Source of the DNA: an uncultured Actinomycetes bacterium
Lineage (GTDB): Bacteria; Actinomycetota; Coriobacteriia; Anaerosomatales; CAVRZR01
Direction of reading: 5' to 3'
DNA length: 64,000 bases
Assembly: GCA_963725795.1 (NCBI GenBank)
Contig: CAVRZR010000003.1
Span: forward strand, 387,359-451,358
The position numbers were made by a program, and so were the translations under genes. Positions 11,418-44,462 of this stretch are shown piece after piece (the stretch's first letter is position 1; each line of letters opens with the position of its first letter). The notes beneath the pieces are model-generated. The model saw only the letters and a list, made by a program, of their open reading frames with translations, was not told the origin of the DNA and did not search any database.

Positions 11418-11443
11418 AAACCGAAGAACAGGAGGTGAACAGG

Positions 11444-12793: not shown

Positions 12794-12842
12794 ACTGCGG
12801 GGTCAGGCCTGCAGCCCGCCCTTCATCCAGTCTGCTTGACGG

Positions 12843-16807: not shown

Positions 16808-17314
16808 CCCCGTTCGGCGCATCGAGCGACGATTCGACAAGCGTCGCATTCTGCCAGGAATGCGGGTTCGGCACGAAGCGCGGGCGCCCGGATTGCCTGA
16901 CTCCACGTGAGCTTGAGCGCAAACCACTTCTTCCACTATCGGTTTCTGCTGCTCAGCCCGTATAATCGATTCCAAATGCCCGCCGATTTGGCAACGCGGG
17001 CGGAAAGACGGCCGACCGAGTCTGCCGCCGGTCGATTGTGTGCTGCACGCCGCATCCGGCTGAAGGGCCCACGTGGAAGATAGCAACGCCCAAAGAACCT
17101 GCCTGGGGTCGACGGTGTTCGTGCAGCCCAGCCAGCCCTCGCGCGCTCGGACGGGTCGATGAGTAGACACGGGCGACATTCTCGTGCGTCGGGCGCTTCC
17201 CGGCTTCGGGTGTATGCGCGCGCTCACTCGCTTGCGCTCGTTGGAGCGGCCGTCATCGTGGCGCTGGCCATGGTGGTCATCGGCGCGATCGTGAGCGCTT
17301 CGGCGGCCGACACG

Positions 17315-22396: not shown

Positions 22397-22479
22397 GGTG
22401 CCACCGGCCCCGCCCGGACGGACATGCGCACGGTAGCGGTCGAAACCACGCTGACGAGCGCGTTCGAGGTCGTGGCGAG

Positions 22480-23610
22480 CTTCAGCGCCGCCGGTGACAT
22501 GCCGGACTACGGGCGCGTGCTCTATTACTCGCAAGACAGCTCCGCGACACCGCCGAGGCCTCTCCTGGGCGCGAGGCCGCTCCGGACTGCGGCGGGCGTC
22601 GGCGCCGTCGCGGCGGGTGACATCGACGGAAACGGTCGTGCCGAGATCCTCGTGGCAGACTCCGCCTCGCTGCAGATAGACGTCTTCGCGTACGACAAGC
22701 TTCGCGGCGTGTCCGACCGTGTCGGTCCGGGTCTCCTGCCGGTGGCCGCCACTGCCGAGTACCTCGCTGTTGGTGACGTGCTGCTGGACTCATGGGGATT
22801 GCCGGAAGTCGTGATGATCGACAGGGGCGCGAACGAGCTGTACGTCTATCGCTACGCAGCCGCGACGTGGACTCTGGTCGATGGGCCGATCGCGGTCGGC
22901 AACGTGAGCGGGATGACCATCGGTGATGTGACCGGGACGTCTCAGGCCGATGTCGTGCTCACCGTTCACGGGCCGGATCGTGTCGTCGTCCTGTCGGAGG
23001 ACTCAGGCCACCTGCTCGAGAGCTCAGTGTTCGGTGCGCGCGCGGGCGTGCGCGGTCCGAGCATCGGCGATGTGTTGTCGGAGCCGGGCAATGAGATCGT
23101 CGTGGCCAATGCCGACGAAACGAGCGACACCGTGTCGGTCTATCGTGCCGACGGCACGACGCTCGGCCACCTCAACGGTGATGAGCTGCCCGGTCAGCGT
23201 GCGACGGCGTCCGCGATAGGAGACGTCCTGCCTGAGGTTCCCGGCCCCGAGGTTCTTGTTTCTTACGCGGATCCTCTGGCGGGCAGTCGGCTGGACGTGT
23301 TCTCGCTCGATGCTACGACCGGTGTGGGCACCGTGGTCGGCTACGACGCGGGAGAGCGTTTCAACCCGGCTGCGATCGCGGTCGGGGACGTGAATGGAGA
23401 CGGGCACAGCGAAGCGCTGCTAGCAAACGCCGGGGCGTTCACGCGTGACGGATCGCGCGAGCGCGCCTCGGTCTCTGTGTTCCGCGCAAACGGAACGGGG
23501 GACGGGCTTGTCGGGCCTCAGATCCTCTCTGGCGGTGGCGCGGAACTCGCGAGCGGGACTGTCCAAGTCGCGATCGCGGACGTGGGAGCGACCCCTCAGA
23601 CTGGACACCC
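22480..23610 (+). other. FG-GAP/VCBS-type beta-propeller region of giant protein
   Basis: About seven repeats of the GD(I/V)(D/N/T)G.G..(E/D)(I/V/L)(L/V)V type: GDIDGNGRAEILVAD, GDVLLDSWGLPEVVMID, GDVTGTSQADVVLT, GDVLSEPGNEIVVAN, GDVLPEVPGPEVLVSY, GDVNGDGHSEALLAN, IADVGATPQ. Confidence 0.6.
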
Positions 23611-23674
23611 GATCGGCGCGGTCCCGGATACGCATGTGTCGACCGAGACGTTCACTCTCGCTCGCCACGTCGAG

Positions 23675-24382
23675 TGCGTCGACTGCCACTCTCACGACGC
23701 TGACAGCGCGGACGCCTCCGCCCCTGTCGTCTTCGGCGCGCTGAAGGGCGCGTGGGGAGTTGCGGTTCAGAATCAGTCATCGGCTGCATACGACCTGACA
23801 CAGCAGCAGGGAGTCCGCTACGAGTACGAGCTCTGCCTGAAGTGCCATTCGCAGTGGTCGGCTCTGGAAGGCAGCGCCGACCTGGCGTCTCTGGTAAACA
23901 CGCGGAACGCGTCGGTGCATGCGATCGAAGAGCCGTCCGCCGACGCGAGCATCCCGGCTGGTTCGTTCCAGGACGGCTGGAGTGACGACTCGGCGCTTTA
24001 TTGCACCTCGTGTCATGGGAACTCGAATCCTTCAGAACCCGCAGGCCCGCATCGCTCGGGTGAGGCGCCCATCCTCGTTCGACCGTACTGGGGCGTCGCC
24101 CCGGACGATGCGGCGGGTCTGTGCTACGAATGTCACCGATATGCCGTGTATCTGACGGGAGCGGAAGACACGTTGGCGGATCCGAAGAGCGCCTTCTACC
24201 TGTCCACGGGTTCGGGCTCCACGGGCCAAGAGGCGCTGCACTCCTACCACGCAGATACACTCGGGTTCGCCTGCGGCTCGTGTCACGTCTCACACGGCTC
24301 GCGGCAGGAGCTGCACTTGCTGCGTTCGGACATCGGCTACACGCCCGATGCGAGCGGCGGCTCGTGCGCGAATCAGTGCCAC
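23675..24382 (+). other. heme block 2 of giant protein: 5 CXXCH plus 1 CX3CH
   Basis: CVDCH (23675-23689), CLKCH, CTSCH, CYECH, CGSCH, CANQCH (24365-24382). Confidence 0.8.
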
Positions 24383-24451
24383 GGAACCGGAGGCGCGACC
24401 AGGTCGTACCTCAGGCCGTAGCCGCGAACGCCTGCGACAGTCGGTGGTCGG

Positions 24452-25510
24452 CTAGCGGACCACGTAGACAGCCGTTCCCACGTTCACGATGTCGTACAAC
24501 TCCTCGACGTTCGCGCGCAGCATTCGGATGCAACCGTGGCTCGCGGCGGTGCCGATGGAGCCGACCTTGTTCGTGCCATGGATGCGGATTCCGGACGCAT
24601 TCAGGTTCAACGCCCGCGTGCCGAGCGGGTTGCCCGGCCCGGGAGGGATATACGCGGGCATGCTGGCGGCCCATGCACTCCCCGGATTCGACCATGAAGG
24701 CCTGTACCGCTTGAGCACGATCTTGAACTGCCCGAGCGGAGTCGGGTAGCCCGGCATTCCGACGGCGACGCGGTACGACTTCACGAGTTTCGCGCCGTTG
24801 TACAAGTAGAGACGCCGCTCCGACTTGTCCACCACGATCGTCTTGCCGAAGGAGGCCTCCGTGACTTTCGGTTTGATGATCGTGACCGGCACGGCAACGG
24901 TCTTCGGCAGCTTCTTAGAAGAGACGATCGCTGTCCTGATCGCGGTCGTGGCCTTCCACCGTTGCAGCTGCTCGCCCTTGACTGAGGCGCGTATCGACAC
25001 ACGGTTGCCGGAGACTTTGCGTACCGCATTCACCGGTGCCTTGTCGATCTTCTTGGCAAGACCATTCACCCAGACTTGGATTGCGGTGGTGTTCACGGTG
25101 TACCGTGGCTTGATGTCGACGGTCTGCGTGGTGCCCGCCAGGCTCTCAATGACGCGCGAGGCGAACGTGCTCGCCTCCCGCACCCGGAACGCATCTTCGA
25201 TCATCGCGCTCTGGTTGACGGTCACGAACTTGCCGGCGTCCATGAAGTAGGTCCGCTTGTAGCGAACGTAGACTGGTCGCTGAAGCCAGTCGGCAACGCT
25301 CGTCTCGATACAAGCGCTCAGTTGTTCCCTCGTCATGCCGCCGATGTCTATGGGCGAACCCACAGGACGCGTGAGGCGGACACCCTCAGGCACGGTTTGG
25401 GCGGTGTCGAGGTCCGAGGCAACAGCCCATGCCATCGTTCCGGACAACATGAGCAACGCGATCGCGAGCAGACCTACGAGGAACCGTCTCGCCTTGCTGG
25501 GTGCTTCCAT
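24452..25510 (-). CDS. L,D-transpeptidase (YkuD domain) with N-terminal anchor
   Basis: MEAPSKARRFLVGLLAIALLMLSG anchor. C-terminal YkuD signature GIRIHGTNKVGSIGTAASHGCIRM. ATG taken at 25510; the ORF is open to 25651. Confidence 0.85.
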   Translation of the reverse strand: MEAPSKARRFLVGLLAIALLMLSGTMAWAVASDLDTAQTVPEGVRLTRPVGSPIDIGGMTREQLSACIETSVADWLQRPVYVRYKRTYFMDAGKFVTVNQSAMIEDAFRVREASTFASRVIESLAGTTQTVDIKPRYTVNTTAIQVWVNGLAKKIDKAPVNAVRKVSGNRVSIRASVKGEQLQRWKATTAIRTAIVSSKKLPKTVAVPVTIIKPKVTEASFGKTIVVDKSERRLYLYNGAKLVKSYRVAVGMPGYPTPLGQFKIVLKRYRPSWSNPGSAWAASMPAYIPPGPGNPLGTRALNLNASGIRIHGTNKVGSIGTAASHGCIRMLRANVEELYDIVNVGTAVYVVR

Positions 25511-25758
25511 CAAGTCCTCCTGCCGAGCGCCTGGGCGATCACCCGATATGTGCCCCGAAGCGGCTCGCGCCTGAAGCGAGCTGCCACTCGGGCGTATTCT
25601 ACAATGGATTGCGAGAGCAGATTGCCTCCCCGGGTGACGGCTCATCAGCAAAATCGAGGCCGCAGCCTCAGGGATTGCTCCGGTTATGGCCGTGGACGCT
25701 GATCGCGGTAGGGATCCGGCCGTTCGTGAAGATGGTGCAGGGATCAGGAGAGCGCGAC

Positions 25759-26138
25759 GTGCCCAGATCCATCCTTGTGGTAGATGATGCGGTCTTCATG
25801 CGGCGGCTCCTCCGCGCGGTGTTCCTTCAAGCCGGCTACCAGGTCCACGAGGCGGTAGGGGGACGAGACGCGTCGAGAAGTACGCCGAACTCCGACCGGA
25901 TCTTGTCACGATGGATCTGGCGATGCCGGGAATCGGGGGCTTTGACGCCATCGCTCGCATCCGCGCACACGATTCGGACGCGCGCATCGTGGTCATCAGC
26001 GCGGAGACCTCCGATGCGGCAGCCTCTCGAGCCACTGAGCTGGGGGCGGTCGCCTTCGTCCGCAAGCCGTTTCAGCCGGAAACCGTGCTCGACGCCGTGC
26101 GGAAGGGACTGCTCGTGCCGCGAGCCCCTCGCTGCTAG
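25759..26138 (+). pseudogene. CheY-like single-domain response regulator (one frame change near 25865)
   Basis: VPRSILVVDDAVFMRRLL...(frame 1) continues as VEKYAELRPDLVTMDLAMPGIGGFDAIARIRAHDSDARIVVISAE...AFVRKPF (frame 3). The shift lies in the G-run gtaggggga. Confidence 0.7.
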
Positions 26139-26143
26139 ACTGG

Positions 26144-27694
26144 TTGGTAGTCCTGCAACAGATGCGAGAGCGGAGGGGCATGGAGGCCGCCGAGTCTTCG
26201 GCGAGGGCGCTCAAGGGGGTCAGGGCTGCGACCAGCATGGCGATCGTCGGCGGAAGCGATCACGCCGCGGCCATTGTGCGGCTGCTGGTGAAGCTTCCCG
26301 GCGTCTCGATCACCTCCGTCTGTGCGGAAGCCTCCCAGCCTGCCGGCCGCTTTGCCGAGGCATCGGGAATCAGGCTCGTGGGCGAGCCACTGGACGCGCT
26401 CGCGTCAGATCCTGCACCGGACATCGTTCTCGACCTCTCGGAGGACGTGGTTACGCGCGCCGCGCTTGAGAGCGCGCTGCCTCCCAGCACCGAACTCCTG
26501 GGCGGAGCCTCTGCCGATCTACTCCTGGAAGTGCTCAGCGGCGCGGTTCACCAGCCGCCCGAGCACCCCCGGCAGTTCTCCGAGCTCGCGCAATCTGAGG
26601 CGATCGGCCGCGCTCGCCGCATGGAGGCGTCGAATGCCGCGCTTGCGCGTGCGAATCGTGATCTGGAAGCGCGTCTGGCCGAGGTCTACTTCATGCACGA
26701 GTTCGTGAAGGCGCTGGTCGCGTATCGCCGGATCGAGGACGTGTCGAGCGTCGTCGTTGATGCGTGCGCGGGTATCGTGGGCGCCGACCTCACGGCGGTC
26801 TACATTCTGGATCGCGAGGAATGGGTACTCCGGCTGGCCCAAGTTCAGGGCAGACCCATGTCGGGTGTCACCGCCGAGGTCCAGCTCTCGGATCCGCTGT
26901 TCGGACTCGCTGTCTCTGAGGGCAGCGCACGACTCGAAGACGGGCAGGCCTGCTCGGCCTGGCTGGCATCGGGTTCCGGTCGCGTTCGCACGCAGGTGGC
27001 ACTTGCCCTGCGGGCCGGAGGCGAGCCGATCGGCGTGTTGGCGCTGGGTTGGTCCGCACACCGCGGGTTGGAGACGCCGGAACTCGAGAGACTGCGCGTG
27101 ATGGCCGACCAGTCCGCTCTGTCGTTGCAGAACGCGCTGTTGCACGCAGAACTCGAGCAGATGTCGGTCACGGATCGCCTTACGGAACTCTTCAATCACG
27201 GCTACGTGACGCAGCGCTTGGATCAGGAGCTAGGGCGTGCCGGCCGCTTCGGCCACCCGCTCTCCGTGATCATGCTCGACATCGATGACTTCAAGGGGTT
27301 CAACGATCGCTACGGCCACATCATCGGGGACGAAGTGCTGCGGTCTGTGAGCAAGCTCATACGCGAGAACCTCCGTGAGATGGACGTTGCCGCCCGATAT
27401 GGCGGCGAGGAGTTCCTCGTTCTCGTGCCGGAGACAGGGCCCCGGGGCGCGCGAGCGGTTGCCGATCGTATCCGTGAGAGTGTTGCCAACAACGTGTTCT
27501 TGCGCGACGCCGCTGGGGAAGACGTTCACGCCTCAGTCTCGGTCGGCGTCGCGACCTTCCCTGCTGCGGGCGAAACGGTCGAGTCGCTCATCAGGGCCGC
27601 CGACGATGCGATGTACGCCGCCAAGCGCGCGGGTAAGAACCGGGTGACGCTATCGGACTTGAACCCCGACACGGGGGCCGCCGAGGAGGTCTGA
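26144..27694 (+). CDS. diguanylate cyclase: N-terminal domain, coiled coil, GAF, GGDEF (GGEEF active site, RxxD I-site)
   Basis: DRLTELFNHGYV...MLDIDDFKGFNDRYGHIIGDEVL...LREMDVAARYGGEEFLVLVPE. The preceding about 150 aa are GAF-like. Start codon uncertain (26144/26162/26180). Confidence 0.85.
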   Translation: MVVLQQMRERRGMEAAESSARALKGVRAATSMAIVGGSDHAAAIVRLLVKLPGVSITSVCAEASQPAGRFAEASGIRLVGEPLDALASDPAPDIVLDLSEDVVTRAALESALPPSTELLGGASADLLLEVLSGAVHQPPEHPRQFSELAQSEAIGRARRMEASNAALARANRDLEARLAEVYFMHEFVKALVAYRRIEDVSSVVVDACAGIVGADLTAVYILDREEWVLRLAQVQGRPMSGVTAEVQLSDPLFGLAVSEGSARLEDGQACSAWLASGSGRVRTQVALALRAGGEPIGVLALGWSAHRGLETPELERLRVMADQSALSLQNALLHAELEQMSVTDRLTELFNHGYVTQRLDQELGRAGRFGHPLSVIMLDIDDFKGFNDRYGHIIGDEVLRSVSKLIRENLREMDVAARYGGEEFLVLVPETGPRGARAVADRIRESVANNVFLRDAAGEDVHASVSVGVATFPAAGETVESLIRAADDAMYAAKRAGKNRVTLSDLNPDTGAAEEV

Positions 27695-27719
27695 GGCCGT
27701 TGCGGCCGACGCTATCCGG

Positions 27720-28061
27720 ATGAGCCTGAAGAGCGCCCTTCGCGCGCTACCTGACGACCGTGTCACGTTCACCACGACTGAGACCGTGGTGCGGTATCTC
27801 GATGGCCACCGGGCGGTCAGCGTCGACGCCTTCAAGATCGCCTCGGTCACGGGGCTCGACCCTGCCCGGATCCAACAGATCCTCACAGTCCTGGCCGAGG
27901 GCGGAGTGCTAGACTGCTTTGGCGAACCGCCCGGGTACAAGTTCGTCCGGGACAAGGTGCTGGAGATAGAGACCCAACTCTTCCTTCGGTCATCGCACAG
28001 CCACACGGATTCGCTCCAGTCGAACGTCGAGCGCTACAGACGGCTCTACGGCGGCAGGTAG
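27720..28061 (+). CDS. small hypothetical protein (possible winged-helix)
   Basis: 113-codon ORF in the same orientation, immediately after the cyclase. Segment IQQILTVLAEGGVLD resembles a recognition helix. No firm motif. Confidence 0.35.
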   Translation: MSLKSALRALPDDRVTFTTTETVVRYLDGHRAVSVDAFKIASVTGLDPARIQQILTVLAEGGVLDCFGEPPGYKFVRDKVLEIETQLFLRSSHSHTDSLQSNVERYRRLYGGR

Positions 28062-28086
28062 CGCGAGATACCCGGAGCGAGGGACG

Positions 28087-28983
28087 ATGGAACCCATCAA
28101 GGTGGGCGATCGCGGGCCCGCCGTGGAAGACATACAGCAGCGTTTGTCGTTGCTCGGCTACGACCTCGGAGCGGCCGGCATCGACGGCGTGCTCTTGGGC
28201 GACACACTCTCGGCGATCCGTCAGTTCCAGGCCGAGCGGGGTTTGCTCCCAGAGGGCGTGGTGGGCGACAAGACATGGGCGGCTCTCGTCGACGCGACGT
28301 TTCTCTTCGGCGACCGCATGCTCTATCTCCGAGTGCCTCACTTCCACGGGCGCGACGTGCTCGTGCTGCAGCAGGCCCTGAACGTGCTCGGTTTCCCATG
28401 CGCGCTCGACGCCATCTTCGGCACCCGTACGGAGAAAGCGCTGCGGGAGTTCCAGCGCAACGTGGCGCTGCCCGCCGATGGGATCGTCGGTCCCGACACC
28501 GTCTCCGCGATCCGCAACCTGAGACACCTGTGGGAGGGCAAGCACACGCACTTGCTGGATGCAGGGCTTGGGAACGAGGTTGCCAACGCGCGCCTGTTGG
28601 AGGCCACCGCCATCGATGTCCGTCCGGAGGACGCCGCGTCTGAGGAATTCACCGCGCGCGTGGCGAACCTCGCGTTCGCTCTCACAGACGACGCCCGCAT
28701 CAGCTTGCTCGCGCGGGCCGAGGAGCCAGCGGCGGACGCGGATGTGCTCGTCAGAGTTCAGGGCGGTGGCACGGACCTCGCTGTACCCGACGTGCCTTTC
28801 GTCATAGTCGGCGACGCAGTACCGGACGTCTTAGCCTCTCGGATGCGAATCGCATTCGCCGCGTCTGATGCGAAGCCGCGGGAGGTGCTGGTCGATGTCT
28901 CGTCGGCTATGAGCGGAGGCGAACGGGAGGCCCAGCAGGCGGCGGTACTTCTCCTCGACGCGCTCTGTGCGGCTTTGGACTGA
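28087..28983 (+). CDS. protein with two peptidoglycan-binding (PG_binding_1-like) repeats
   Basis: GDRGPAVEDIQQRLSLLGYDLG...IRQFQAERGLLPEGVVGDKTWAAL and GRDVLVLQQALNVLGF...LREFQRNVALPADGIVGPDTVSAI. Confidence 0.7.
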   Translation: MEPIKVGDRGPAVEDIQQRLSLLGYDLGAAGIDGVLLGDTLSAIRQFQAERGLLPEGVVGDKTWAALVDATFLFGDRMLYLRVPHFHGRDVLVLQQALNVLGFPCALDAIFGTRTEKALREFQRNVALPADGIVGPDTVSAIRNLRHLWEGKHTHLLDAGLGNEVANARLLEATAIDVRPEDAASEEFTARVANLAFALTDDARISLLARAEEPAADADVLVRVQGGGTDLAVPDVPFVIVGDAVPDVLASRMRIAFAASDAKPREVLVDVSSAMSGGEREAQQAAVLLLDALCAALD

Positions 28984-29045
28984 GCAGACCGGCAATGCTA
29001 GCCTAGAATGGTTCGACTGCATTCGATCATCCAGGGAGGCCTGTT

Positions 29046-30101
29046 CTGAGGGGCCGAAGCAGGACATACCTCATCTTCTTTCTCGCATGCCTCGTCGCTC
29101 TCTCAGCGAGTCCGGCTCTCGGGGCGCCCACCTCATCCAGTAAGCGGGCCGATGCCCGCGAGGTGAAAGCGCAGATCGACAGGCTCGATCGCAGGGTCGA
29201 GATCGCCGCGGAAGACTACAACGAGGCTTCCGAGCGCTTGGCCGAGTTGCGCAAGGGCGTGCGGGCGGAGCAAAAGCGCGTAGCGAAGGCTACCAAGCGG
29301 ATCGATGCCCTGCAGACAGACTTGAACGCACGCGTTTGGAGCATGTATCGCAGCGGTCCGGTGACGTTCGTTGAGGTTCTTCTCCAAGCCGAGGACTTCG
29401 ACGAATTCGCTTCGACCTGGGACACGCTGCGCAAGCTCAACGTACGCGACGCGCAAGACGTGGTCGCGCTCAACGAGGCGCGCGCCGAAGCCCGCGCGGC
29501 ACGCAAGGCGCTCGCGCTGAAGGAGGCCAAGGCCAAGCGCGTCGTCAAACGGATGGCTGAGCGCAGGGCGAGCATCCAGTCGCAGCTGGCGTCACGCAAG
29601 CGAATGCTTCAGGGTCTCGAGAGTCAGATCGCTGCTCTTGAGGCTGCCGAGGAAGCGCGAGCCGCCGCAAGGGTGCGAGCCGCTGCGGCAGCCGCCGCAG
29701 CATCCGTGGCGCGCTACGTGCCGGTCGTCGAACGCTACTTCCCGCCCCCCACCCGCGCGGCGCGCGGTGAAGTCGTCTCGGTCGCCCAACGTTACCTCGG
29801 GGCTCCCTACCGGTGGGGCGCTTCGGGTCCGAACAGCTTCGATTGCAGCGGATTCACGATGTACGTCTACCAGCAGGTGGGCGTATCCCTGCCCCACAAC
29901 TCGGGTGCTCAGTACGGCAGCGGAGAACATGTCTCGCGCGCGGATCTGCAGCCGGGCGATCTCGTCTTCTTCGGCTCGCCGATACACCACGTCGGCATCT
30001 ACGTCGGCGGCGGAGCATACATCCACTCGCCCCACACTGGGGACGTGGTGAAGATCTCCCCGCTCGATCGCGGAGACTACGCAGGCGCCGTCCGCCCGTA
30101 G
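29046..30101 (+). CDS. secreted NlpC/P60 peptidoglycan endopeptidase with coiled-coil N-domain
   Basis: Signal peptide RGRSRTYLIFFLACLVALSASPALGAP. Long coiled coil. C-terminal YRWGASGPNSFDCSGFTMYVYQ...GDLVFFGSPIHHVGIYVGGG. No ATG/GTG/TTG in frame between stop 29004-29006 and 29163; CTG 29046 follows GGGAGG. Confidence 0.75.
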   Translation: MRGRSRTYLIFFLACLVALSASPALGAPTSSSKRADAREVKAQIDRLDRRVEIAAEDYNEASERLAELRKGVRAEQKRVAKATKRIDALQTDLNARVWSMYRSGPVTFVEVLLQAEDFDEFASTWDTLRKLNVRDAQDVVALNEARAEARAARKALALKEAKAKRVVKRMAERRASIQSQLASRKRMLQGLESQIAALEAAEEARAAARVRAAAAAAAASVARYVPVVERYFPPPTRAARGEVVSVAQRYLGAPYRWGASGPNSFDCSGFTMYVYQQVGVSLPHNSGAQYGSGEHVSRADLQPGDLVFFGSPIHHVGIYVGGGAYIHSPHTGDVVKISPLDRGDYAGAVRP

Positions 30102-30223
30102 CCGAATTCCCGTTCGAGGCCAGCTCGCTTCACTGAGAAGTGCCCGTCATCGCTACAGTGACCCTCTCATGCTGCCGAAAATCGTCACGTGGGGGTACAA
30201 GCTGGGGTACGAGGGAGTGTGAG

Positions 30224-31327
30224 ATGGCGGACATCGGTGGGCTACTGCGAATCATGGTGAGTCTCGGAGGCTCCGACCTGCACATTAAGGCCGGCGCTCC
30301 TCCTTCCGTTCGAGTGGACGGCGTACTCAGGGTGCTGAGAGACATGCCTGCATACACGCCCCAAGAGGCTGAAGCGCTGGCTGCAAGCATCATGAACGAC
30401 CGGCAGCGCCTGCAGTTCGAGAATCAGCACGAGGTTGATTTCGCCTACTCAGTACACGATGTGGGCCGATTCCGGGCCAACGTGTTCCATCAGCGTGGCA
30501 CGGTGGGCGTCGCGTTGCGTCGCGTCGTCAAGGGCAACGCGACCATCCATGAGCTCGGGCTGCCGGCCACGGTTCTCAAACTGGCAGACGAGCCGCGCGG
30601 GCTCGTTCTGGTCACGGGCACCGCTGGATCGGGAAAGACGACAACGCTGGCCTCGATGATCGCGCACATCAACTCCTCGCGCGAGGGACACATCGTGACC
30701 ATCGAGGACCCCATCGAGGTGCTACACACCGATGACCGATGCGTCATCAATCAGCGGGAGATCGGTCTGGACACGGATTCCTACGCCGATGCACTGCGAC
30801 ACGTCGTCCGGCAGGACCCGGACATCATCTTCATCGGCGAGATGCGCGACCACGAGACCGTGTCGGCGGCCCTCACTGCCGCAGAGATCGGCAACCTGGT
30901 GCTCTCGACGCTACATACGATCGACGCCACGGAGACTATCAGCCGCATCATCGACTTCTTCCCTCCATACCAGCAGAAGCAGATCCGGCTCATGCTGGCA
31001 TCCACGCTCAAGGGGATCATTTCGCTCCGGCTCATCCCATCAGTCAGTGGTGGGCTCGTGCCTGCGGTTGAGATCATGGTCATGACCGGCACGATTCGCG
31101 AGTACATAACGGATCCGGAGCAGACGTACAAGATCCGTGACGCCATGGAAGACGGTGTCTACTACGGCATGCAGACGTTCGATCAGAGTCTGCTCCGGCT
31201 CTTCCAGGAGGGACGCATCGCCCTGGACGACGCCATCGCCATGGCGGCCAACGCGCATGACTTCAAGATCAAGCTGCGGCAGATCGGCGTATCGGCGGCC
31301 GAGACGGCTCGAAGCGGCGTCTACTGA
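30224..31327 (+). CDS. pilT: type IV pilus retraction ATPase PilT
   Basis: LVLVTGTAGSGKTTTLASMI Walker A; IVTIEDPIE; DPDIIFIGEMRD Walker B; VLSTLHT; typical PilT length of 367 aa. Confidence 0.85.
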   Translation: MADIGGLLRIMVSLGGSDLHIKAGAPPSVRVDGVLRVLRDMPAYTPQEAEALAASIMNDRQRLQFENQHEVDFAYSVHDVGRFRANVFHQRGTVGVALRRVVKGNATIHELGLPATVLKLADEPRGLVLVTGTAGSGKTTTLASMIAHINSSREGHIVTIEDPIEVLHTDDRCVINQREIGLDTDSYADALRHVVRQDPDIIFIGEMRDHETVSAALTAAEIGNLVLSTLHTIDATETISRIIDFFPPYQQKQIRLMLASTLKGIISLRLIPSVSGGLVPAVEIMVMTGTIREYITDPEQTYKIRDAMEDGVYYGMQTFDQSLLRLFQEGRIALDDAIAMAANAHDFKIKLRQIGVSAAETARSGVY

Positions 31328-32785: not shown

Positions 32786-33100
32786 GTGGCGGACCGTCGC
32801 GTCGACTACTACCGCGTCCTGCAAGTCCGTCGCGACGCGGAACCTGAAGTCATCGAGCGCGCGTACAAGGCGCTCTCGCTCAAGTACCACCCTGACGTCG
32901 CTCCGCCGCATCAAAGACCTGCTGCGACGAAGCGGATGCAACTCATCAATGAGGCGTATGGAACCCTCAAGGACCCTTCGGCGCGCCGACGCTACGACGC
33001 GACGCTCCCGCCGGAGGGGATGCCGCGTACTGCGTGGGACGAGTTCTGGGAGAAAGGTCTTGTCGGGCTCTTCCGGGAACGCTACTCCGCTCGGCGCTAG
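32786..33100 (+). CDS. J-domain (DnaJ N-terminal domain only) protein
   Basis: DYYRVLQVRRDAEPEVIERAYKALSLKYHPDV...INEAYGTLKDPSARRRYD. Confidence 0.7.
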   Translation: MADRRVDYYRVLQVRRDAEPEVIERAYKALSLKYHPDVAPPHQRPAATKRMQLINEAYGTLKDPSARRRYDATLPPEGMPRTAWDEFWEKGLVGLFRERYSARR

Positions 33101-34285
33101 CGATCCGCGTTTGTGCGCGGTCCGGCTCGGCGAATGCCGAGCGTGTGCCTGCCCAGGGTCCGGGCCAGTATCGGTGCAGAGAGCCCGATGACCTGGGGCG
33201 GGCAGAGCTCCTGGCAACAGTAGCAGCGGATGCACGTGCGGTGATCGAACGTCGGGCCCCCCTGACCAATCGCGATCGCACCGACCGGGCACGATCGTTC
33301 GCACGTGCGGCACTTCGTGCAGCCGCTTGTGCGTGCGAGATACGGTCTCGCTGTCGTCCACTGCCGGAGCCGCCTGCCGAGCCAGCGCGGCATCCTGCTC
33401 GAGAGATCGCGTGAAGGCAGCTCGAACTCGGCGGGAGAGAGTGCTCGCCAGTCCTCCCCGAGCATCTCGACCGCGTCCGCGCCGCTTGGACCCAAACCGC
33501 GCCGGGACGCCGCCTTGTTCGTGTAGACCTCGAGAGGGTCGAGCCCGGCCATCGCCGAGGCAACCACATCCAGGGCCACCGAATCGGTCGACGCAATCAA
33601 CGCTCCGATGGCGCGCGGTTTGCCGCCGGCAGGTCCATCGCCCTCCATACCGACGACGGCGTCCATCACTGCGAGGGCGGGTCGGCAGGCGAGCATGAGA
33701 TCGACGAGCATCTCGCCGAAGTCATCGCGGTCCGGCACCTTCAGATGGTATTGCGCTTTCTCCAGAGCCCGGGATGCAACCAAAGAGGTTCTTCACAGCA
33801 CCCGTGAACATCATGAAGCCGTGCGTCTTGAACTTGGGCACTGAGATCAAGACGTCCGCCTCGGCGACCAATCGTCCGACTGTGAACGCGCCGTAGAGCG
33901 TGCCGCTCGGGTTCGCGACCCTGATCGCGTCATCGTCGAACAGAACGAGTTCGGCCTCTTCTTCCGAGCAGACGGCGGCCATGCCCGTCGCCGCGTGCAA
34001 GGACCTGATCTGCGCGGAGGTGTTCGGACCGCCGGGACTGTCCCCGACCATCGGGAGACCGCCTGCTGCGCGCACCGAACGGACGAGAGCCCGGACGACT
34101 TCGGGATGCGTGGTGACAGCGCGCTCGGGCGTCGCCTTGGCGAGAAGGTTGACCTTGATCAGTACGCGGTCTCCCTCGCCGACGAATGCGCTCATGCCTC
34201 CGAGGGGAGCCAATGCGGCGTCGAGCGCAGCCGATACCGCCTCCGGATCGTAGGTGGCGCAGTGCGCGATGCTGACGCCGCTCAC
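33097..34285 (-). pseudogene. DUF362-domain protein with C-terminal 2x[4Fe-4S] ferredoxin domain (one frame change near 33775)
   Basis: GTG 34285. ...VLIKVNLL...VTTHPEVVRALV...ISVPKFKTHGFMMFTGAVKNLFGCIPG then a shift (G-run) to LEKAQYHLK...MDAVVGMEGDGP... and CTKCRTCERSCP / CIRCYCCQELCP. Confidence 0.7.
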
Positions 34286-34923: not shown

Positions 34924-34952
34924 AATATACCCCATGGGGTATCGGTTGGCAA
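34924..34952 (-). promoter_or_regulatory. sigma-70-like promoter of the ferredoxin / Sec-protein / DUF362 operon
   Basis: Minus-strand TTGCCA (34952-34947), 17-nt spacer, TATATT (34929-34924), about 45 nt upstream of ATG 34879. Confidence 0.45.
34927..34942. promoter_or_regulatory. perfect 16-bp palindrome ATACCCCATGGGGTAT (operator candidate, CsoR/RcnR-like shape)
   Basis: Fills the spacer and overlaps the -10 of the minus-strand promoter. It sits in the divergent intergenic region with ridA. Confidence 0.5.
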
Positions 34953-35026
34953 GCACACGTGACTCTCGACGGAGCGGGATGGCGCGCGCAGTTGGTAGAC
35001 TCGAGCCGGCTAAGAGAGGAGCTGCC

Positions 35027-35497
35027 GTGACATCATCGAGGATCGTTGCCGGGCGCCTGGCCGACGCGGGACTTGAACTGCCGACCCCGCCCGCTGCGCT
35101 GGGGCAATACGTGCCCGCCGTGCGTTGGGCGGATGTCGTCTTCACGTCGGGCCAACTCCCGTTGCGCGAGGGGGATTTGATCGCCAGCGGGCTCGTCGGA
35201 CAGGAGGTGTCCGTGGAGGTGGCGGCCCTGTGTGCTCGGCAGGCCGTGCTGAACGCACTTGCGGCGGCTGCGACCGTATGCGATCTCGACGAAGTCGATC
35301 GCGCGATCAAGCTGGTCGGGTACGTTGCCAGCGCCGAGACATTCACAGCGCAGCCGACAGTCGTCAATGGCGCGAGCGAAGTGCTCGCGATCGCGTTCGG
35401 CGAAGCCGGAAGGCATGCACGGGAGGCCGTGGGCGTGGCCAGGCTCCCGCTCGACTCGCCCGTGGAGCTGTCACTCGTCCTGGGTCTCGCTACCTGA
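35027..35497 (+). CDS. ridA: RidA/YjgF-family reactive-intermediate deaminase
   Basis: RBS GAGAGGAG, GTG 35027. ...VVFTSGQLPL...QARQAVLNALAA...VKLVGYVAS...ARLPLDSPVEL typical of YjgF/RidA. Confidence 0.75.
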   Translation: MTSSRIVAGRLADAGLELPTPPAALGQYVPAVRWADVVFTSGQLPLREGDLIASGLVGQEVSVEVAALCARQAVLNALAAAATVCDLDEVDRAIKLVGYVASAETFTAQPTVVNGASEVLAIAFGEAGRHAREAVGVARLPLDSPVELSLVLGLAT

Positions 35498-35758
35498 ACG
35501 GACCTCAAACGAAGCGCCGTGGGAAGCGTGAATCGTCGCACGGAGCTGCAGTCGACCCGCACTCGACGCTGGCGCGCGTGATTCGAAACACGGTGCACGT
35601 GCGGGCAGGGAAGATGCGTGCGGCGTCGAATCTCGTGGCAGATGCTGGACTGTGCGGTTGAGGGCGGCCAGCGGTTTCAGATATCGTTAGCTTTCAGGAA
35701 TGGGAGCGGGCGCTGCCCGTTCTTGTCGTGCGCGGCGAGAGCACCCGGGAGAGGACAC

Positions 35759-37792
35759 ATGGCGAAGATCTCGTTTGCTGGATGGAAGGACCCGGTCCGG
35801 AGGCCCCGGTACATCATCTGGACCGGTGTCGCGGTTCTCGTGATCGCGGTTTTCGCGATTCTCGCGTTAGGGGCGACCTCGACCTACTGGTTCTGCGCCA
35901 GCATCTGCCACAAGGTCCAAGACGACAGCATCATCGCCTACAACCGCTCCAGCCATAGCCAGATCTCATGCATGTCATGCCACGAGCCGGTGAACGCCGA
36001 TCCGGTGACGTTCATCCTCGCCAAGGCGGAAGCCCTCGGCGAGTTGTATCTCACGGCCCTGAACAAGTACGAGCTGCCGCTGAACGCGGAGAGCCACTAC
36101 TCCCTGGAGCTGGAGTCCAGGCAGTGCACTCAATGCCATTCGGAGAACCGCATCATCACGCCGACACAGGGCGTGATCATCGACCACGATGTCCACGCCG
36201 AGAAGGAAGTGCAGTGTACGTACTGTCACAACCGGATCGCGCATCGGGAGGACTTCGAACTCACGCTGAAGAACCCGGACGGTAGTCCGAGTCACAAACA
36301 CGACGACTTCATGTCCATGACCGCGTGCTTCCGTTGCCACAGCCAGGGCGAGGACGGGCTCGAGCGTCCGCTCGAGGCGGCGGGAACATGCAGCCTCTGT
36401 CATCCGTCGAACTTCCAGCTCAAGCCCGCCAGCCACTTCGAGCAGGACTTCTACCCCAAGGGCCACGCCGAACTGGCAGCCGAGGTCCAGACCGAGACGG
36501 CCGAGGCGCGCAAGGAGGCTGAGGCCGAGGGCGAAGGCGAGGGCGGCGAGGAGCCTCTCGGCATGCAGCTCCCGACGGTGGCCGAGGTGAACTACTGCGA
36601 GACGTGCCACAACAAGGAGACCTTCTGCAACGGTTGCCACGGCATGGAGATGCCGCACCCGGCCGAATTCCTCGAACCTGCGAGTCCGACCGATCCGGCG
36701 GGCCACCCCGAGGTGTCGAAGAAGGCACCGGATAAGTGCGAGATGTGCCACCAGGTCAAGAAGACGGACTTCTGCAACAAGTGCCACCACGGTACGTACG
36801 TGAGCTGGGACTACAAGTCCGCGCCGCCGTGGATCAACCAGCACGCCACGGCGGTCAACAAGACCGGCATAGCGCCGTGCACCCAGAAGTGCCATACCAC
36901 GACGTTCTGTTCGGACTGCCACACCAAGCTCAAGCCGATACCGACGTCCCACAAGCAGAAGACGTGGCTGCACAACAAGACGACCGTGACTGTGCCGGGT
37001 CAGGCTGCGGCGAAGCCGACCGCGCTGCACGCGACCAACGCGCTGAACGACATGGAGACCTGCACGGTGTGTCACGGCAACAAGGACGCGAACGCGAAGT
37101 TCTGCAAGGCATGCCATAAGCTGGAGACGCCTCACCCCGAGCAGTTCAAGGAGTTCCACTCCAAGACTGGCAAGTCCAATCCGGCCGTGTGCCTGAACTG
37201 CCATCGATTCACCGAGATCTGCAGCAACTGTCACCACATCGGCTCGTCGCTCAGGGCCCCGTGGATGAACATCCATGGAGCCTCGGTGGCGAAGAACGGA
37301 GCGGCAGGCTGCATAGAGAAGTGCCACCAGAAGAAGGACTGCGTTGCGTGCCATACCTCTCGCAAGGTCGTTCCCGCATCGCACAAGACGAAGGACTTCG
37401 TGAAGCGTACGAAGCCCGACGTACCCGCGAAGCACACGACGCAGTACGAGCAGAACTCAGACGCATGCACCTACTGCCACGGCGACGGCGGTCCGAATGC
37501 CAAGTTCTGTAAGAGCTGTCACAAGCTCGACATGCCGCACCCGATCGACGAGAACAACAAGCAGAAGTTCCCGCACAAGGATCAGCTCAACAAGGGCGCG
37601 TACAAGAAGGTGCAGTGTACGAACTGCCATACGCAGTACTTCTGCGACAGCTGCCATCACGAGGGCGCCTCGGCTAAGCAGCCCTGGCGGACGTACCACC
37701 CCACTGTCGTGAAGAAGAACGGCGCGGAACCCTGCTTCGAGTGCCACGCCGAGACGTTCTGTTCGTACTGCCACGTGCGACTCAACAAGTAG
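35759..37792 (+). CDS. membrane-anchored 24-heme c-type cytochrome: NapC/NirT-like N-terminal module plus three hexaheme repeats (intact)
   Basis: ATG 35759. TM helix YIIWTGVAVLVIAVFAILALGA. 21 CXXCH plus 3 CX3CH (CASICH 35894, CTQKCH, CIEKCH) in 677 codons. The first four motifs are spaced as in NapC/NirT/CymA quinol dehydrogenases. Confidence 0.9.
   Translation: MAKISFAGWKDPVRRPRYIIWTGVAVLVIAVFAILALGATSTYWFCASICHKVQDDSIIAYNRSSHSQISCMSCHEPVNADPVTFILAKAEALGELYLTALNKYELPLNAESHYSLELESRQCTQCHSENRIITPTQGVIIDHDVHAEKEVQCTYCHNRIAHREDFELTLKNPDGSPSHKHDDFMSMTACFRCHSQGEDGLERPLEAAGTCSLCHPSNFQLKPASHFEQDFYPKGHAELAAEVQTETAEARKEAEAEGEGEGGEEPLGMQLPTVAEVNYCETCHNKETFCNGCHGMEMPHPAEFLEPASPTDPAGHPEVSKKAPDKCEMCHQVKKTDFCNKCHHGTYVSWDYKSAPPWINQHATAVNKTGIAPCTQKCHTTTFCSDCHTKLKPIPTSHKQKTWLHNKTTVTVPGQAAAKPTALHATNALNDMETCTVCHGNKDANAKFCKACHKLETPHPEQFKEFHSKTGKSNPAVCLNCHRFTEICSNCHHIGSSLRAPWMNIHGASVAKNGAAGCIEKCHQKKDCVACHTSRKVVPASHKTKDFVKRTKPDVPAKHTTQYEQNSDACTYCHGDGGPNAKFCKSCHKLDMPHPIDENNKQKFPHKDQLNKGAYKKVQCTNCHTQYFCDSCHHEGASAKQPWRTYHPTVVKKNGAEPCFECHAETFCSYCHVRLNK
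36596..37792 (+). repeat. three tandem intragenic repeats, six heme motifs each
   Basis: Repeat starts at TGC 36596, 37061 and 37466. Shared pattern CxxCH-x8-11-FCxxCHk(l)(e/d)mPHP ... CxxCH-x4-5-(F/I)CxxCHh ... PW ... C(x2-3)CH-x3-4-(F/D)CxxCH. Confidence 0.8.
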
Positions 37793-37817: not shown

Positions 37818-37846
37818 GAGAGCCCGGGCCTTGTGCCCGGGCTCTT
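37818..37846 (+). terminator. stem-loop terminator after 24-heme cytochrome
   Basis: GAGAGCCCGGGC-CTTGT-GCCCGGGCTCTT (12-bp stem). Confidence 0.55.
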
Positions 37847-37927: not shown

Positions 37928-38004
<77 letters not shown>

Positions 38005-38062
38005 GCCCGCACCTTCAACGGCAGGCCTCAGCGCCTGCCGTTGCCCATCTGGGGAGCAAGGT

Positions 38063-38737
38063 TTGTACGAAACGCTGCTCCAGCTGTTCGGCTACGGCCT
38101 GTGCCATCAACTGCCCGAACGCTCCTTGTTCGGCGGATCCGTACAGGTGCCCGTTTGCGCTCGGGACACGGGGATATACGTCGGCATCGTCCTGTCGCTC
38201 ATCCTTGTTGCTGCGCTGCAGTGGCGGCCGTCCTCGCTTCCGTCGATGCGTGTGGGACTGGTCATGGTCGCCTTCGTCGGCGTCATGGCGCTTGACGGCG
38301 TGACCTCCTATGCGGGCCTCCGACAGACGACGAACGAACTCCGACTGATCACCGGGCTGCTGTCCGGGTACGCGATCGGCGCTCTGATGGCGCCTCTTCT
38401 CAACGATCAGCTCTGGCGGCGCTCGTCGGCGGAGCGCGTGCTTGGCGACGCGAGGAGCTTCTGGCTCTGGCTCGCTTCGATTCCGGTGGCGTATGTCCTC
38501 ACGTGGTGGGGAGGCGACGTCTTGGGGCGGCTGTTCCCGCTATTGGTCGTTGTAGCCATCCTGTGGTCGTTCACGGTTGCCAACCTTCTGATCGTCACCC
38601 TGTTCCGCCGCTTCGAGCGGCGCGCTGACACCGTCATCCAGGCGTGGGCGCCGATAGGCATCGCTTTCGCGCTCGCGTGGATTGAGATCGCTGCCAGCGC
38701 CGGTATCAAGTTGGTGCTCGTGTCGCTCTTGTCCTGA
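38063..38737 (+). CDS. DUF2085-family membrane protein
   Basis: LFGYGLCHQLPERSLF...VPVCARDTGIY signature followed by 4-5 TM helices. TTG 38063 after GGGGAG; the ORF is open from 37898, overlapping the tRNA. Confidence 0.6.
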   Translation: MYETLLQLFGYGLCHQLPERSLFGGSVQVPVCARDTGIYVGIVLSLILVAALQWRPSSLPSMRVGLVMVAFVGVMALDGVTSYAGLRQTTNELRLITGLLSGYAIGALMAPLLNDQLWRRSSAERVLGDARSFWLWLASIPVAYVLTWWGGDVLGRLFPLLVVVAILWSFTVANLLIVTLFRRFERRADTVIQAWAPIGIAFALAWIEIAASAGIKLVLVSLLS

Positions 38738-38814: not shown

Positions 38815-39153
38815 ATGGATACCGATGATCGTGGCTGGCTGCTCTGGCCGCTGCTGTGCAGCCTCAAACGAGAAGCCCGTTCGGTTCGCCTTATGCCCGA
38901 GAAAGCCGTGGCCGTCGCTGTTCGTGCCGCCTCGGACAGGTTCGCGGATCTTGCACACGTACGCATGGACAACGCAACGACGCGACGTGTTGCCGCTTAC
39001 TTCTGGGGAACTGCACGCCGAGCCGCTCTTCGCTCGGATCGCGCGTACGCGCATCGGGTGGTTCGTGCGACGCTGGCCGCGGATCTGGCTGCGGCGGGGT
39101 GGGAACCCCGGGCGATAGACACAGAGCTCGAACGTGCCGGACTATCTGCCTGA
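38815..39153 (+). CDS. hypothetical protein
   Basis: 112-codon ORF with RBS GAGGAGAGAG 5-8 nt before ATG 38815. No motif recognised. Confidence 0.4.
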   Translation: MDTDDRGWLLWPLLCSLKREARSVRLMPEKAVAVAVRAASDRFADLAHVRMDNATTRRVAAYFWGTARRAALRSDRAYAHRVVRATLAADLAAAGWEPRAIDTELERAGLSA

Positions 39154-39585
39154 GGTTGCGGCCGAGAACAATACGTTGCCGTTGGCAGCGTCCAAGGCCC
39201 AGAGGCGTCTCGCGGAAAGAATCTCGCCCGGACCGCCGTAGACCTCGATCACGACGAGTGCGCGCGTTCCGTTGACAACGGCGTGCTCCACATACACTGG
39301 TACGGAACCCGTGTCCGCCGGAAGCGATCGCGTTATCGTGTTGGCCGCTTGAGCTGCGGTTGAACCGCGAGCCCTGAGTTGCACGAGGGCTTCGTGACGA
39401 AGCGAGGATGCATCTGCCGTTGGCTGCGTCGCAACATGGCCGACCTCCACGTCATCGAGGAGGCGCTCGAGATCCGGAGCGGTGTACGTTGATCCATCCT
39501 CGACGTAGCTGACGATGTTGTGCCCGCAGCCGGACAGTATCAGCGCAAGTGCAAACGCGATCGCGAGCCGTATTGAAGCGCTGAT
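39142..39585 (-). CDS. lipoprotein, hypothetical
   Basis: Signal peptide plus lipobox SASIRLAIAFALALILSGC. No ATG/GTG/TTG precedes it in frame (a TGA lies just upstream). ATC 39585 lies 9 nt after GAAGGGGG. Confidence 0.45.
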   Translation of the reverse strand: MSASIRLAIAFALALILSGCGHNIVSYVEDGSTYTAPDLERLLDDVEVGHVATQPTADASSLRHEALVQLRARGSTAAQAANTITRSLPADTGSVPVYVEHAVVNGTRALVVIEVYGGPGEILSARRLWALDAANGNVLFSAATSGR

Positions 39586-43688: not shown

Positions 43689-43749
43689 CACGCCCTCGGC
43701 CGTTCGACGGACTTTCTCGCTGGAATGCGGAATTACCGCGGCAAACCCG

Positions 43750-43778
43750 TTGCCGAAGTATGTAACAGTTGTTACGAT
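43750..43778 (+). promoter_or_regulatory. rex promoter with embedded inverted repeat TGTAAC-AGTT-GTTACG (43761-43776)
   Basis: TTGCCG (43750-55), 17-nt spacer, TACGAT (43773-78). GTAACA-GT-TGTTAC palindrome at 43762-43775, 37 nt upstream of GTG 43812. Confidence 0.4.
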
Positions 43779-43811
43779 ATCTGCTACTTCGACCGGCACG
43801 AAGGGCTCACC

Positions 43812-44462
43812 GTGGTTGTAGCCAGCGAGCGAATTCCTGAGGGTGTGATCGAGCGCCTGCCAACCTATCTGGGCGCGCTGATGCAACTTCGGCAGGAGGG
43901 CCACAGCACGATCTCGTCGGCCAGCTTGGGCGACCTCATCGAGATCAACCCTGCTCAGATCCGCCGCGATCTCGCCTATTTTGGGTCGTTCGGCAAGCGT
44001 GGTGTCGGATACGATCTCATGACGCTGATCAACCGAATCCAGAGCATCCTCGGGTCGGACCACACGCACGGAATCGTGCTGGTTGGAGCGGGTAACCTGG
44101 GATCCGCGATCGCGGCATATGACGGCCTTCGGGCTCGCGGCTTCCGAGTCGCCGCCATCTTCGACAACGACCCGTCCAAGGTCGGGAAGCGGATTGGCGA
44201 CCTCATCGTCCAGGACATGTCGCACCTCGAGAAGACCGTACGCGAGCAGGATGTGAAGATCGGGGTGATCGCCGTGTCGCCCGAGGCGGCGCAGGCAGCG
44301 GCCGATGCGCTCTGCTCAACGGGGGTGAGCGTGATTCTCAATTACGCGCCCACCATTGTGCACGTGCCACGCGAGGTCACACTTCACAACACCGACCCCG
44401 TGAGGGAGTTGCTGCACACGCTGTACTACCTGTCGCGCGCGGAGGGCGTAGCCAGGGTATAG
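43812..44462 (+). CDS. rex: redox-sensing transcriptional repressor Rex
   Basis: IPEGVIERLPTYLGALMQL...ISSASLG...QIRRDLAYFGSFGKRGVGY...VLVGAGNLGSAIA...IFDNDPSKVG. Start GTG 43812; the ORF is open from 43725. Confidence 0.85.
   Translation: MVVASERIPEGVIERLPTYLGALMQLRQEGHSTISSASLGDLIEINPAQIRRDLAYFGSFGKRGVGYDLMTLINRIQSILGSDHTHGIVLVGAGNLGSAIAAYDGLRARGFRVAAIFDNDPSKVGKRIGDLIVQDMSHLEKTVREQDVKIGVIAVSPEAAQAAADALCSTGVSVILNYAPTIVHVPREVTLHNTDPVRELLHTLYYLSRAEGVARV

Follow-up and report, generated by a model that had tools for sequence, protein, structure and literature searches.

A 24-heme membrane cytochrome of Anaerosomatales-like Actinobacteria, with a NapC/NirT-type head and a repeat tail, as a probable electron conduit linking the cytoplasmic membrane with the cell exterior

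The 64-kb stretch of DNA analyzed here (the window; contig CAVRZR010000003.1, positions 387,359 to 451,358) comes from an uncultured actinobacterium of the order Anaerosomatales and carries the gene for a multiheme cytochrome, which is the subject of this report. Its coding sequence (CDS) lies on the plus strand at 35759..37792, stop included (stop codon 37790-37792), and encodes a membrane cytochrome of 677 amino acids (aa) with 24 heme motifs. A preliminary description of this DNA had called the gene intact and had given it 677 codons, one N-terminal transmembrane (TM) helix and 21 CXXCH plus 3 CX3CH motifs; the open reading frame (ORF) is indeed unbroken, and motif counting and hydropathy returned the same figures, which amount to about one heme per 28 residues. 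The three CX3CH motifs are CASICH at aa 46, CTQKCH at aa 374 and CIEKCH at aa 518, and all 48 cysteines of the protein fall within heme motifs. A six-frame scan of the 64 kb found heme motifs only in this gene, in three upstream multiheme genes and at five scattered positions, and since so few lie outside the multiheme genes, a chance origin of the motifs can be excluded.

Relatives of the cytochrome were collected in two ways. A listing of homologs returned more than 533 matching proteins, the best 120 of which supplied the motif and identity figures given below, and a scan of one genome per species found at least 269 stretches encoding a relative, from which 80 loci were fetched. These helped to place the start codon. 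The longest mechanical ORF begins at a GTG at 35618 and would give 724 aa, and the ATG at 35759 gives 677 aa. A Shine-Dalgarno sequence, GGGAGAGGA, is found at 35747..35755 (+), its AGGAGAG core is kept at the same distance in related loci, and the combination of AGGAGAG box and ATG start recurs in 71 of 78 of them. Since all homologs also start with MAKIS or MPKIS at the position aligned with ATG 35759, we take this ATG to be the real start.

From the N-terminus, the protein begins with a TM anchor (aa 17-40, 35807..35878, +), which appears as the single hydrophobic stretch in the hydropathy profile and as a helix over residues 15-40 in an AlphaFold2 (AF2) model, upholding the anchor on which the preliminary description had staked its reading. 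The positively charged N-terminus that precedes it has a net charge of +3, so by the positive-inside rule the bulk of the cytochrome should face outward. An acidic head follows with hemes 1-6 (aa 41-230, 35879..36448, +; isoelectric point (pI) 5.4), and is joined by an acidic linker rich in Glu, Ala and Gly (aa 231-275, 36449..36583, +; pI 4.2) to a basic, Lys-rich tail (aa 276-677; pI 8.7, 46 Lys) that holds hemes 7-24. The tail consists of three hexaheme repeats, all on the plus strand, delimited by self-alignment and by their motifs: R1 (aa 276-430, hemes 7-12, 36584..37048), R2 (aa 431-565, hemes 13-18, 37049..37453) and R3 (aa 566-677, hemes 19-24, 37454..37789), the last of which is truncated after its final heme pair. 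This charge polarity is a family trait, with median pI values of 6.1 for the head, 4.6 for the linker and 8.8 for the tail. The linker varies in length from 43 to 117 aa across the family (67-141 aa between motif 6 and motif 7) and is also the least conserved part, with a mean identity of 0.34 compared to 0.66 for the TM helix, 0.63 for the head and 0.54 for the repeats. The TM helix and head being the best-conserved regions suggests that the helix is an uncleaved, functional membrane anchor as opposed to a signal peptide.

The three tandem repeats had been proposed before, and Smith-Waterman self-alignment recovers them well above background, at z = 18-27 (27.1 for R1-R2, 24.5 for R2-R3 and 17.7 for R1-R3; local alignment score against 300 shuffles). 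We also see the exchange of the CX3CH motif of R1 and R2 for CFECH in R3. What has to be revised is the layout of the head, to which four motifs had been assigned: the overall counts hold, and the head contains six motifs (aa 46-215), with one of the three CX3CH motifs being its first. A kinship between the head and the repeats was considered and ruled out, as the two align with z ≤ 3.1. Each repeat is built from three closely spaced di-heme pairs whose motif starts lie 9-14 residues apart within a pair, and behind each pair stand conserved histidines (PHP, CHH, SH...H). In an alignment of 117 sequences all 24 motifs are strictly or almost strictly conserved, as are their histidines (H215 at ≥90%), and a further 23 invariant His lie outside the motifs. 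Since this provides 47 invariant His for 24 hemes, at most one heme would have a different ligand and the protein reads as a chain for electron transfer with bis-His ligation nearly throughout. The cytochrome contains neither CXXCK nor any other catalytic signature, and the sequence fits a protein in which almost all hemes are low-spin and bis-His, with no obvious catalytic site. R3 ends five residues past its last motif and does not have the two trailing conserved His of R1 and R2, and for this reason its terminal heme pair may be differently ligated or exposed.

Comparison of the tail to known families gave little. Pfam yields no significant family for it besides a marginal PF02085 match, where the best tail stretch is aa 430-483 and the whole-protein score of 25.8 (cutoff 22.9) is summed from three stretches. 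The PF14522 match is restricted to aa 140-215 and the best PF14537 stretch is aa 117-159, both in the head. We thus do not regard the tail repeats as c7 or c3 domains (PF14522, PF02085, PF14537), given that the best matches lie in the head and that the one in the tail is marginal. A profile made from the 117-sequence alignment found no relative of the tail among PDB sequences. The AF2 model of the tail alone is confident, with a predicted local distance difference test (pLDDT) score of 89.4 and a predicted template modelling (pTM) score of 0.66; the full-length model reaches pLDDT 81.8 and pTM 0.48, with the head at a moderate 55-80. Foldseek searches of the PDB with both models returned only meaningless matches (E > 3), and because apo models of multiheme proteins are poor queries this says that no known relative was detected and is not proof of a new fold.

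For the head, the NapC/NirT likeness suspected from its motif spacing passed a hidden Markov model (HMM) check, scoring 47.3 bits against PF03264 (cutoff 24.1) over aa 23-163 and profile positions 15-170 of 174, and the homologs carry a precomputed PF03264 match as well. Hemes 1-4 form the NapC/NirT-type core and hemes 5-6 a c7-like extension (PF14522, aa 140-215). The only solved relative of the cytochrome, by sequence or by profile, is NrfH (2j7a_C; E = 2e-4, aa 22-163), to which all four core motifs align, including motif 1, whose CX3CH form (CASICH) is conserved family-wide. Two invariant residues, K89 and E95, fall within a few residues of the quinol-site Lys and Asp of NrfH in an alignment whose register is uncertain here. 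An identity as NrfH itself was rejected, since the TIGR03153 equivalog model scores 43.7 bits where 134.2 are needed and no NrfA-like gene lies in the neighbourhood in the window or in the 80 loci. A match to PF22113 (MtrC/MtrF domain II/IV of outer-surface decahemes; 35.8 bits against 30) over aa 49-198 overlaps the stronger NapC/NirT match, and Foldseek gave no MtrC-like match, with the same caution about apo models. There is no second NapC-like head or hexaheme repeat within the 64-kb window.

The architecture is fixed across a large family. Full-length homologs are found at 45-76% identity, and nearly all of the best 120, which range from 47 to 76%, are full-length; one protein cluster among the homologs (P0001) is 100% identical. 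Exactly 24 motifs are present in 112 of 120 homologs and in 69 of 78 loci, the exceptions being mostly frame-broken genes in metagenome-assembled genomes (MAGs) from long reads, plus one ortholog with a deleted tail. In the latter (L068:7932-8921; 76% identity over aa 1-299) the protein stops after 8 heme motifs and the downstream DUF2085 gene lies ~1.1 kb nearer than usual, a natural deletion of most of the tail with the synteny otherwise unchanged. Named homologs come from Coriobacteriia MAGs and are annotated 'NapC/NirT family cytochrome c', and the records of the 80 loci are labelled Coriobacteriia, Anaerosomatales, Actinomycetota or 'Eubacteriales'. Many carry the label 'uncultured Eubacteriales bacterium' (L001, L003, L004, L006 and others) and one protein (P0083) is labelled Clostridiales; because both the cytochrome and its synteny match those of Coriobacteriia MAGs, these labels are probably wrong.

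A full-library search with the tail alone returned 450 clusters at 50% identity (E ≤ 1e-3) with many other architectures. There are 12-heme relatives with a TM helix, a NapC-like head and one repeat in ~320-445 aa, 18-heme relatives with a NapC-like head and two repeats, and relatives with 26-32 hemes that still bear the PF03264 head. This range shows the hexaheme unit to be a modular building block, of which the 24-heme protein represents a single fixed grade. Two 12-heme paralogs (L079:6389-9152 and L080:6900-9197) sit directly downstream of genes for 13-15-heme cytochromes, whereas the 24-heme gene stands alone; a few kb upstream of these paralogs is a Rex-like regulator, assigned from motifs by eye and not by HMM.

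To look at gene context, the proteins of the window's neighbours were searched against the 80 loci using tblastn, with neighbours named from Pfam. The conserved order leading up to the cytochrome is EamA, a DnaJ-domain protein (55 of 80 loci), a variable position taken by DUF362 or a methyl-accepting chemotaxis protein (MCP), and RidA (47 of 80); in the window the RidA/YjgF-family gene is at 34934..35497 (+), is directly upstream in most of the loci listed with it, and is noted as context only. Downstream are a DUF2085 membrane protein (69 of 80), a small minus-strand ORF (62 of 80), a SAM hydroxide adenosyltransferase (59 of 80), a YhaM-like HD protein (59 of 80) and a purine/uridine phosphorylase (62 of 80). 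Independently called genes around a 51%-identical homolog follow the same order. The DUF2085 gene (38060..38737, +; start uncertain) scores 93.9 bits against PF09858 and keeps its place at about +2.3 kb. Between it and the cytochrome is a tRNA-Pro(CGG) gene (37928..38004, +), an invariant neighbour in all 42 related loci scanned, where it lies 90-160 bp past the cytochrome stop at protein identities of 41-76%, an unusually stable adjacency. The small ORF (39142-39450, minus strand; 102 aa), between the DUF2085 and SAM hydrolase genes, belongs to no Pfam family. About 6 kb downstream of the cytochrome, at 43725-44462 (+), is a Rex-type regulator (Put_DNA-bind_N plus CoA_binding), and L068 and L075 have a similar gene on their downstream side; the sequence upstream of the cytochrome, inspected by eye only and with no formal test, showed no Rex operator.

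The signals flanking the gene are consistent with a transcript of its own. A tentative promoter-like element, TTGAGG-N16-GATATC, can be read from the sequence at 35658..35685 (+), ~75 nt 5' of the ATG; the evidence for it is weak, as similar TTG...-TATATCGT blocks occur at -80 to -110 in 12 of 78 related loci compared to 4.4 in shuffles, and a sigma-70 consensus scan called no promoter, this element included. Just 3' of the stop is a GC-rich, terminator-like hairpin (37819..37845) whose T-tail is weak on the plus strand. The cytochrome gene is most likely monocistronic, as it has a strong ribosome-binding site to itself and its stop codon is followed by the hairpin and then by the tRNA gene.

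No reductase, cytochrome-maturation gene or other cytochrome adjoins the cytochrome, and a neighbouring reductase gene is likewise missing from the 80 loci and from the independently called contexts. This bears on what the head is for. NrfH serves NrfA, and Cgr1-type cytochromes serve reductases in Eggerthella, and the cytochrome could be a conventional NapC/NirT quinol dehydrogenase for one or more soluble extracytoplasmic reductases encoded elsewhere, with its tail as a docking or relay platform and not a wire through the wall. Membership in PF03264 agrees with this, as does the pairing of NapC/NirT-like cytochromes with reductases in Coriobacteriia (compare PMC5953540). However, a link to a soluble reductase, which the preliminary description had named as the pattern that would speak against an electron conduit, is missing from the neighbourhoods just described, the head falls far short of the NrfH equivalog cutoff, and an 18-heme relay goes far beyond the need of any known partner-docking module. 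We consider this explanation improbable. The fixed synteny, along with the absence of an adjacent reductase, maturation gene or cytochrome, marks a core gene passed on by vertical inheritance within an Anaerosomatales-like Coriobacteriia lineage, and we read the gene as such and not as part of a mobile respiratory island.

Evidence on expression comes from a biocathode strain. Coriobacteriaceae sp. EMTCatB1, from a thermophilic electromethanogenic biocathode, carries a 24-motif ortholog with 56% identity (locus L009) in the order DnaJ ORF, 381-aa MCP, cytochrome, DUF2085. In its annotation 1d0896 is dnaJ, 1d0897 tar, 1d0898 a multiheme cytochrome and 1d0899 a predicted membrane protein, and because this order matches that of L009 we identify 1d0898 as the ortholog. 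Expression on an electrode had been suggested as a check on a role in extracellular electron transfer (EET), and the published transcriptome supports one: 1d0898 reached 2347 transcripts per million (TPM) under closed circuit compared to 137 and 130 in the controls (open circuit and BrES), an increase of ~17-fold, and the authors propose it for direct electron uptake. In the same genome, the counterpart of the small minus-strand ORF lies at ~11326-11619 (-) of L009, and the annotation places two plus-strand hypotheticals, 1d0900 and 1d0901, at the small-ORF site; both are up under closed circuit (1249 and 1127 TPM, compared to 151-348).

We propose that the cytochrome, monocistronic and anchored in the cytoplasmic membrane, is a built-in conduit for electrons from that membrane to the extracytoplasmic space or back, a reading we hold with moderate confidence. 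A single TM helix, N-terminus inside, would hold the acidic six-heme head at the outer face of the membrane, and the first four hemes of that head form a NapC/NirT module of the NrfH/CymA type. The variable acidic linker tethers the basic 18-heme tail, made up of three hexaheme units of three di-heme pairs each. As in NrfH and CymA, the head may swap electrons with a lipophilic carrier (menaquinol/menaquinone), and electrons would travel from heme to heme along the tail, enter or cross the cell wall and arrive at extracellular multiheme cytochromes, minerals or electrodes. The basic tail would lie in the anionic wall and could exchange electrons with extracellular partners either way; electron flow may well be reversible, with the sole expression dataset pointing to uptake from a cathode. 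How far the wire reaches may be set by its count of hexaheme units, which is 1, 2, 3 or more in relatives.

How far such a wire would reach can be roughly estimated. The solved heme wires MtrA and OmcS advance by ~8 Å per heme. At this rise, the 18-heme tail would span roughly 14 nm, which would reach into the wall and is less than the thickness of many monoderm walls, so that a full spanning of the wall by the cytochrome is possible, not likely.

It is also possible that the natural direction is inward, making the cytochrome an electron-uptake conduit and quinone reductase, and not a respiratory exit; cathodes, Fe(0), reduced minerals or syntrophic partners would then supply the membrane with electrons. 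The induction of 1d0898 on a methane-producing biocathode, relative to both open circuit and BrES, is what this would predict, and all-bis-His chains are typically reversible. The enrichment of relatives on anodes suggests otherwise, with related Coriobacteriales making up the fourth most abundant genome of an anode biofilm (PMC7399161), and the order Anaerosomatales includes an obligate Fe(III) reducer (PMC9686372), so flow would be outward in at least some members. Direction is not derivable from sequence alone, and we regard a dedicated inward role as rather unlikely.

Several points weigh against the proposed conduit. A CX3CH motif at heme 1 is atypical for NapC/NirT proteins, and the expression of 1d0898 was measured in a single study, in two replicates. 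A comparable set of multiheme genes is found in Anaerosoma tenue, which is unable to reduce Fe(III) (PMC9686372), and thus having such genes is not the same as performing EET. The pLDDT of 55-80 for the head, the full-length pTM of 0.48 and the flexible linker weaken the case for an unbroken heme path from head to tail. Finally, the two cultured Anaerosomatales are both recorded as 'not detected' for respiratory quinones. This last observation would be explained if the head were fed without quinones by membrane complexes, such as the cytochrome b of a group 1i [NiFe] hydrogenase or a formate dehydrogenase, or if the 24 hemes served as a capacitor, and in EMTCatB1 hydrogenase and formate dehydrogenase are co-expressed with the multihemes. 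However, the strong conservation of the TM helix and head is what would be expected of a lipid-facing quinol site, and the invariant K89 and E95 lie near the position of the NrfH quinol-site residues. Both cultured Anaerosomatales genomes also carry Nuo-type complexes, which need a lipophilic carrier, and the annotation of EMTCatB1 includes genes for menaquinone-type biosynthesis, namely for a UbiA-type prenyltransferase and for a demethylmenaquinone methyltransferase. A quinone-free donor, or a capacitor, therefore seems to us a poor prospect, and we keep to an electron conduit with a presumed quinone-linked head.

A bolder version of the conduit can be put forward tentatively, and we would sooner doubt it than rely on it: that the cytochrome is a single-polypeptide monoderm conduit, with the NapC/NirT quinol/quinone module joined by the flexible acidic tether to a basic rod of hemes in a structurally unsolved hexaheme fold, that its repeat number acts as a ruler for the distance electrons are carried into or across the wall, and that it is the ancestral, core bidirectional EET device of the whole Anaerosomatales-type lineage. 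If true, this would explain the occurrence of these Actinobacteria on anodes, on cathodes and at iron-reducing subsurface sites.

The window also contains a multiheme island at 1-24 kb, for which the cytochrome had been described as the membrane entry or exit point. This link was not supported, as the two are ~11 kb apart and their linkage is not conserved: at the locus of the 51%-identical homolog, the position upstream of the GGDEF gene that in the window belongs to the L,D-transpeptidase and then the island is taken by a DEAD helicase gene. The cytochrome may well serve the cytochromes of the island, though genomic linkage does not show such service. The ~11 kb in between hold genes for L,D-transpeptidase, GGDEF, peptidoglycan-binding, NlpC/P60, PilT-like, EamA, DnaJ, DUF362 and RidA proteins. 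Among these, the block at 24452-31327 comprises the L,D-transpeptidase, two peptidoglycan-binding proteins, NlpC/P60, GGDEF and a PilT-like ATPase, and its GGDEF-to-EamA part is syntenic in L081 and L082. The island itself includes NHL, TPR and Gly-rich proteins. A 1480-aa ORF at 19979-24421 (+) has 14 heme motifs, FG-GAP repeats, an InlB-type B-repeat and an MtrC/MtrF domain II/IV match, making its product a candidate cell-surface terminal cytochrome, and it is preceded by Gly_rich_2-domain proteins at 17159-18148 and 18802-20373. Two six-motif multiheme genes at 824-2004 and 11558-12882 (+) have motifs that switch frames (1/0 and 1/0/1, respectively) and are frame-broken or mis-assembled; Pfam yields only Paired_CXXCH matches for them.

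The preliminary description had counted the cytochrome among the few respiratory genes here that escaped a frame break. It is intact, but the breaks are not special to respiratory genes, as one indel near 33766 breaks the DUF362 plus 4Fe-4S gene (33097-34285, minus strand) into two frames that overlap; the ortholog of this gene in L002 is one ORF of 412 aa. Cytochrome orthologs in other MFD long-contig MAGs (L065, L071, L072 and L076) are frame-broken too. Since a non-respiratory gene is hit and the breaks recur in MFD MAGs, they look like assembly indels and not like selective decay.

In the searchable literature, we found no 24-heme actinobacterial cytochrome or NapC fusion beyond generic annotation and the EMTCatB1 transcriptome, and no description of an architecture fixed at 24 hemes, of the hexaheme unit as a repeat, of an acidic tether leading to a basic tail, of a series graded by repeat number or of the core-gene synteny. 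The hexaheme unit has no solved relative and is present in proteins with 12, 18, 24 and roughly 30 hemes. The cytochrome is a compact target for structure determination, spectro-electrochemistry and heterologous expression, and could be used to test a single-protein link from membrane to exterior.

The closest solved protein, NrfH of Desulfovibrio vulgaris (PDB 2j7a/2vr0), shares the single N-terminal TM anchor and four heme motifs in the same order and spacing. It differs in having four hemes in ~160 aa and in being bound to NrfA, whereas the cytochrome has 24 hemes in 677 aa and no partner gene, and the latter has a CX3CH first motif, has no CXXCHxM and stays below the cutoff of the NrfH equivalog model. 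The role proposed for the cytochrome, that of a reversible membrane hub between the quinol pool and EET, is also the role of CymA, the tetraheme NapC/NirT quinol dehydrogenase of Shewanella. CymA passes its electrons to separate periplasmic and outer-membrane cytochromes, in contrast to the relay described here, which is fused into one polypeptide in a monoderm host; a 2018 survey of CymA lists no actinobacterial homolog. ImcH of Geobacter is also a NapC/NirT-related inner-membrane cytochrome with extra hemes and is dedicated to EET, but it is described with seven hemes, with three TM helices and without a repeat tail.

Chains lengthened by tandem duplication of heme modules are found in GSU1996 (c7-type dodecaheme) and HmcA (c3-type, 16 hemes). 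These two known wires and PgcA are soluble and do not have a quinol-dehydrogenase head, and the hexaheme unit here is of neither the c7 nor the c3 type. PgcA has a flexible low-complexity tether between its redox modules that is comparable to our linker (compare PMC11520253). In Carboxydothermus ferrireducens the putative quinol oxidases have been described as bearing CISM-type membrane anchors or as ActA-like, with no more than a plain CymA homolog besides; we therefore rejected the 'quinol-oxidizing multihemes' of Carboxydothermus, cited for Anaerosomatales, as members of this family.

The passage of electrons over a thick, non-conductive Gram-positive wall is known only in outline, and for no more than a few Firmicutes, which use several separate cytochromes. 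In the chain of Thermincola potens and C. ferrireducens, as in our proposal, multiheme cytochromes carry electrons over a monoderm wall, but the cytochromes are several and separate, and in none of them does a NapC head continue into a repeat tail. What sets the present cytochrome apart is a quinol-dehydrogenase-like module and a long heme chain in one protein, whose gene keeps its neighbours across hundreds of uncultured Actinobacteria of the subsurface.

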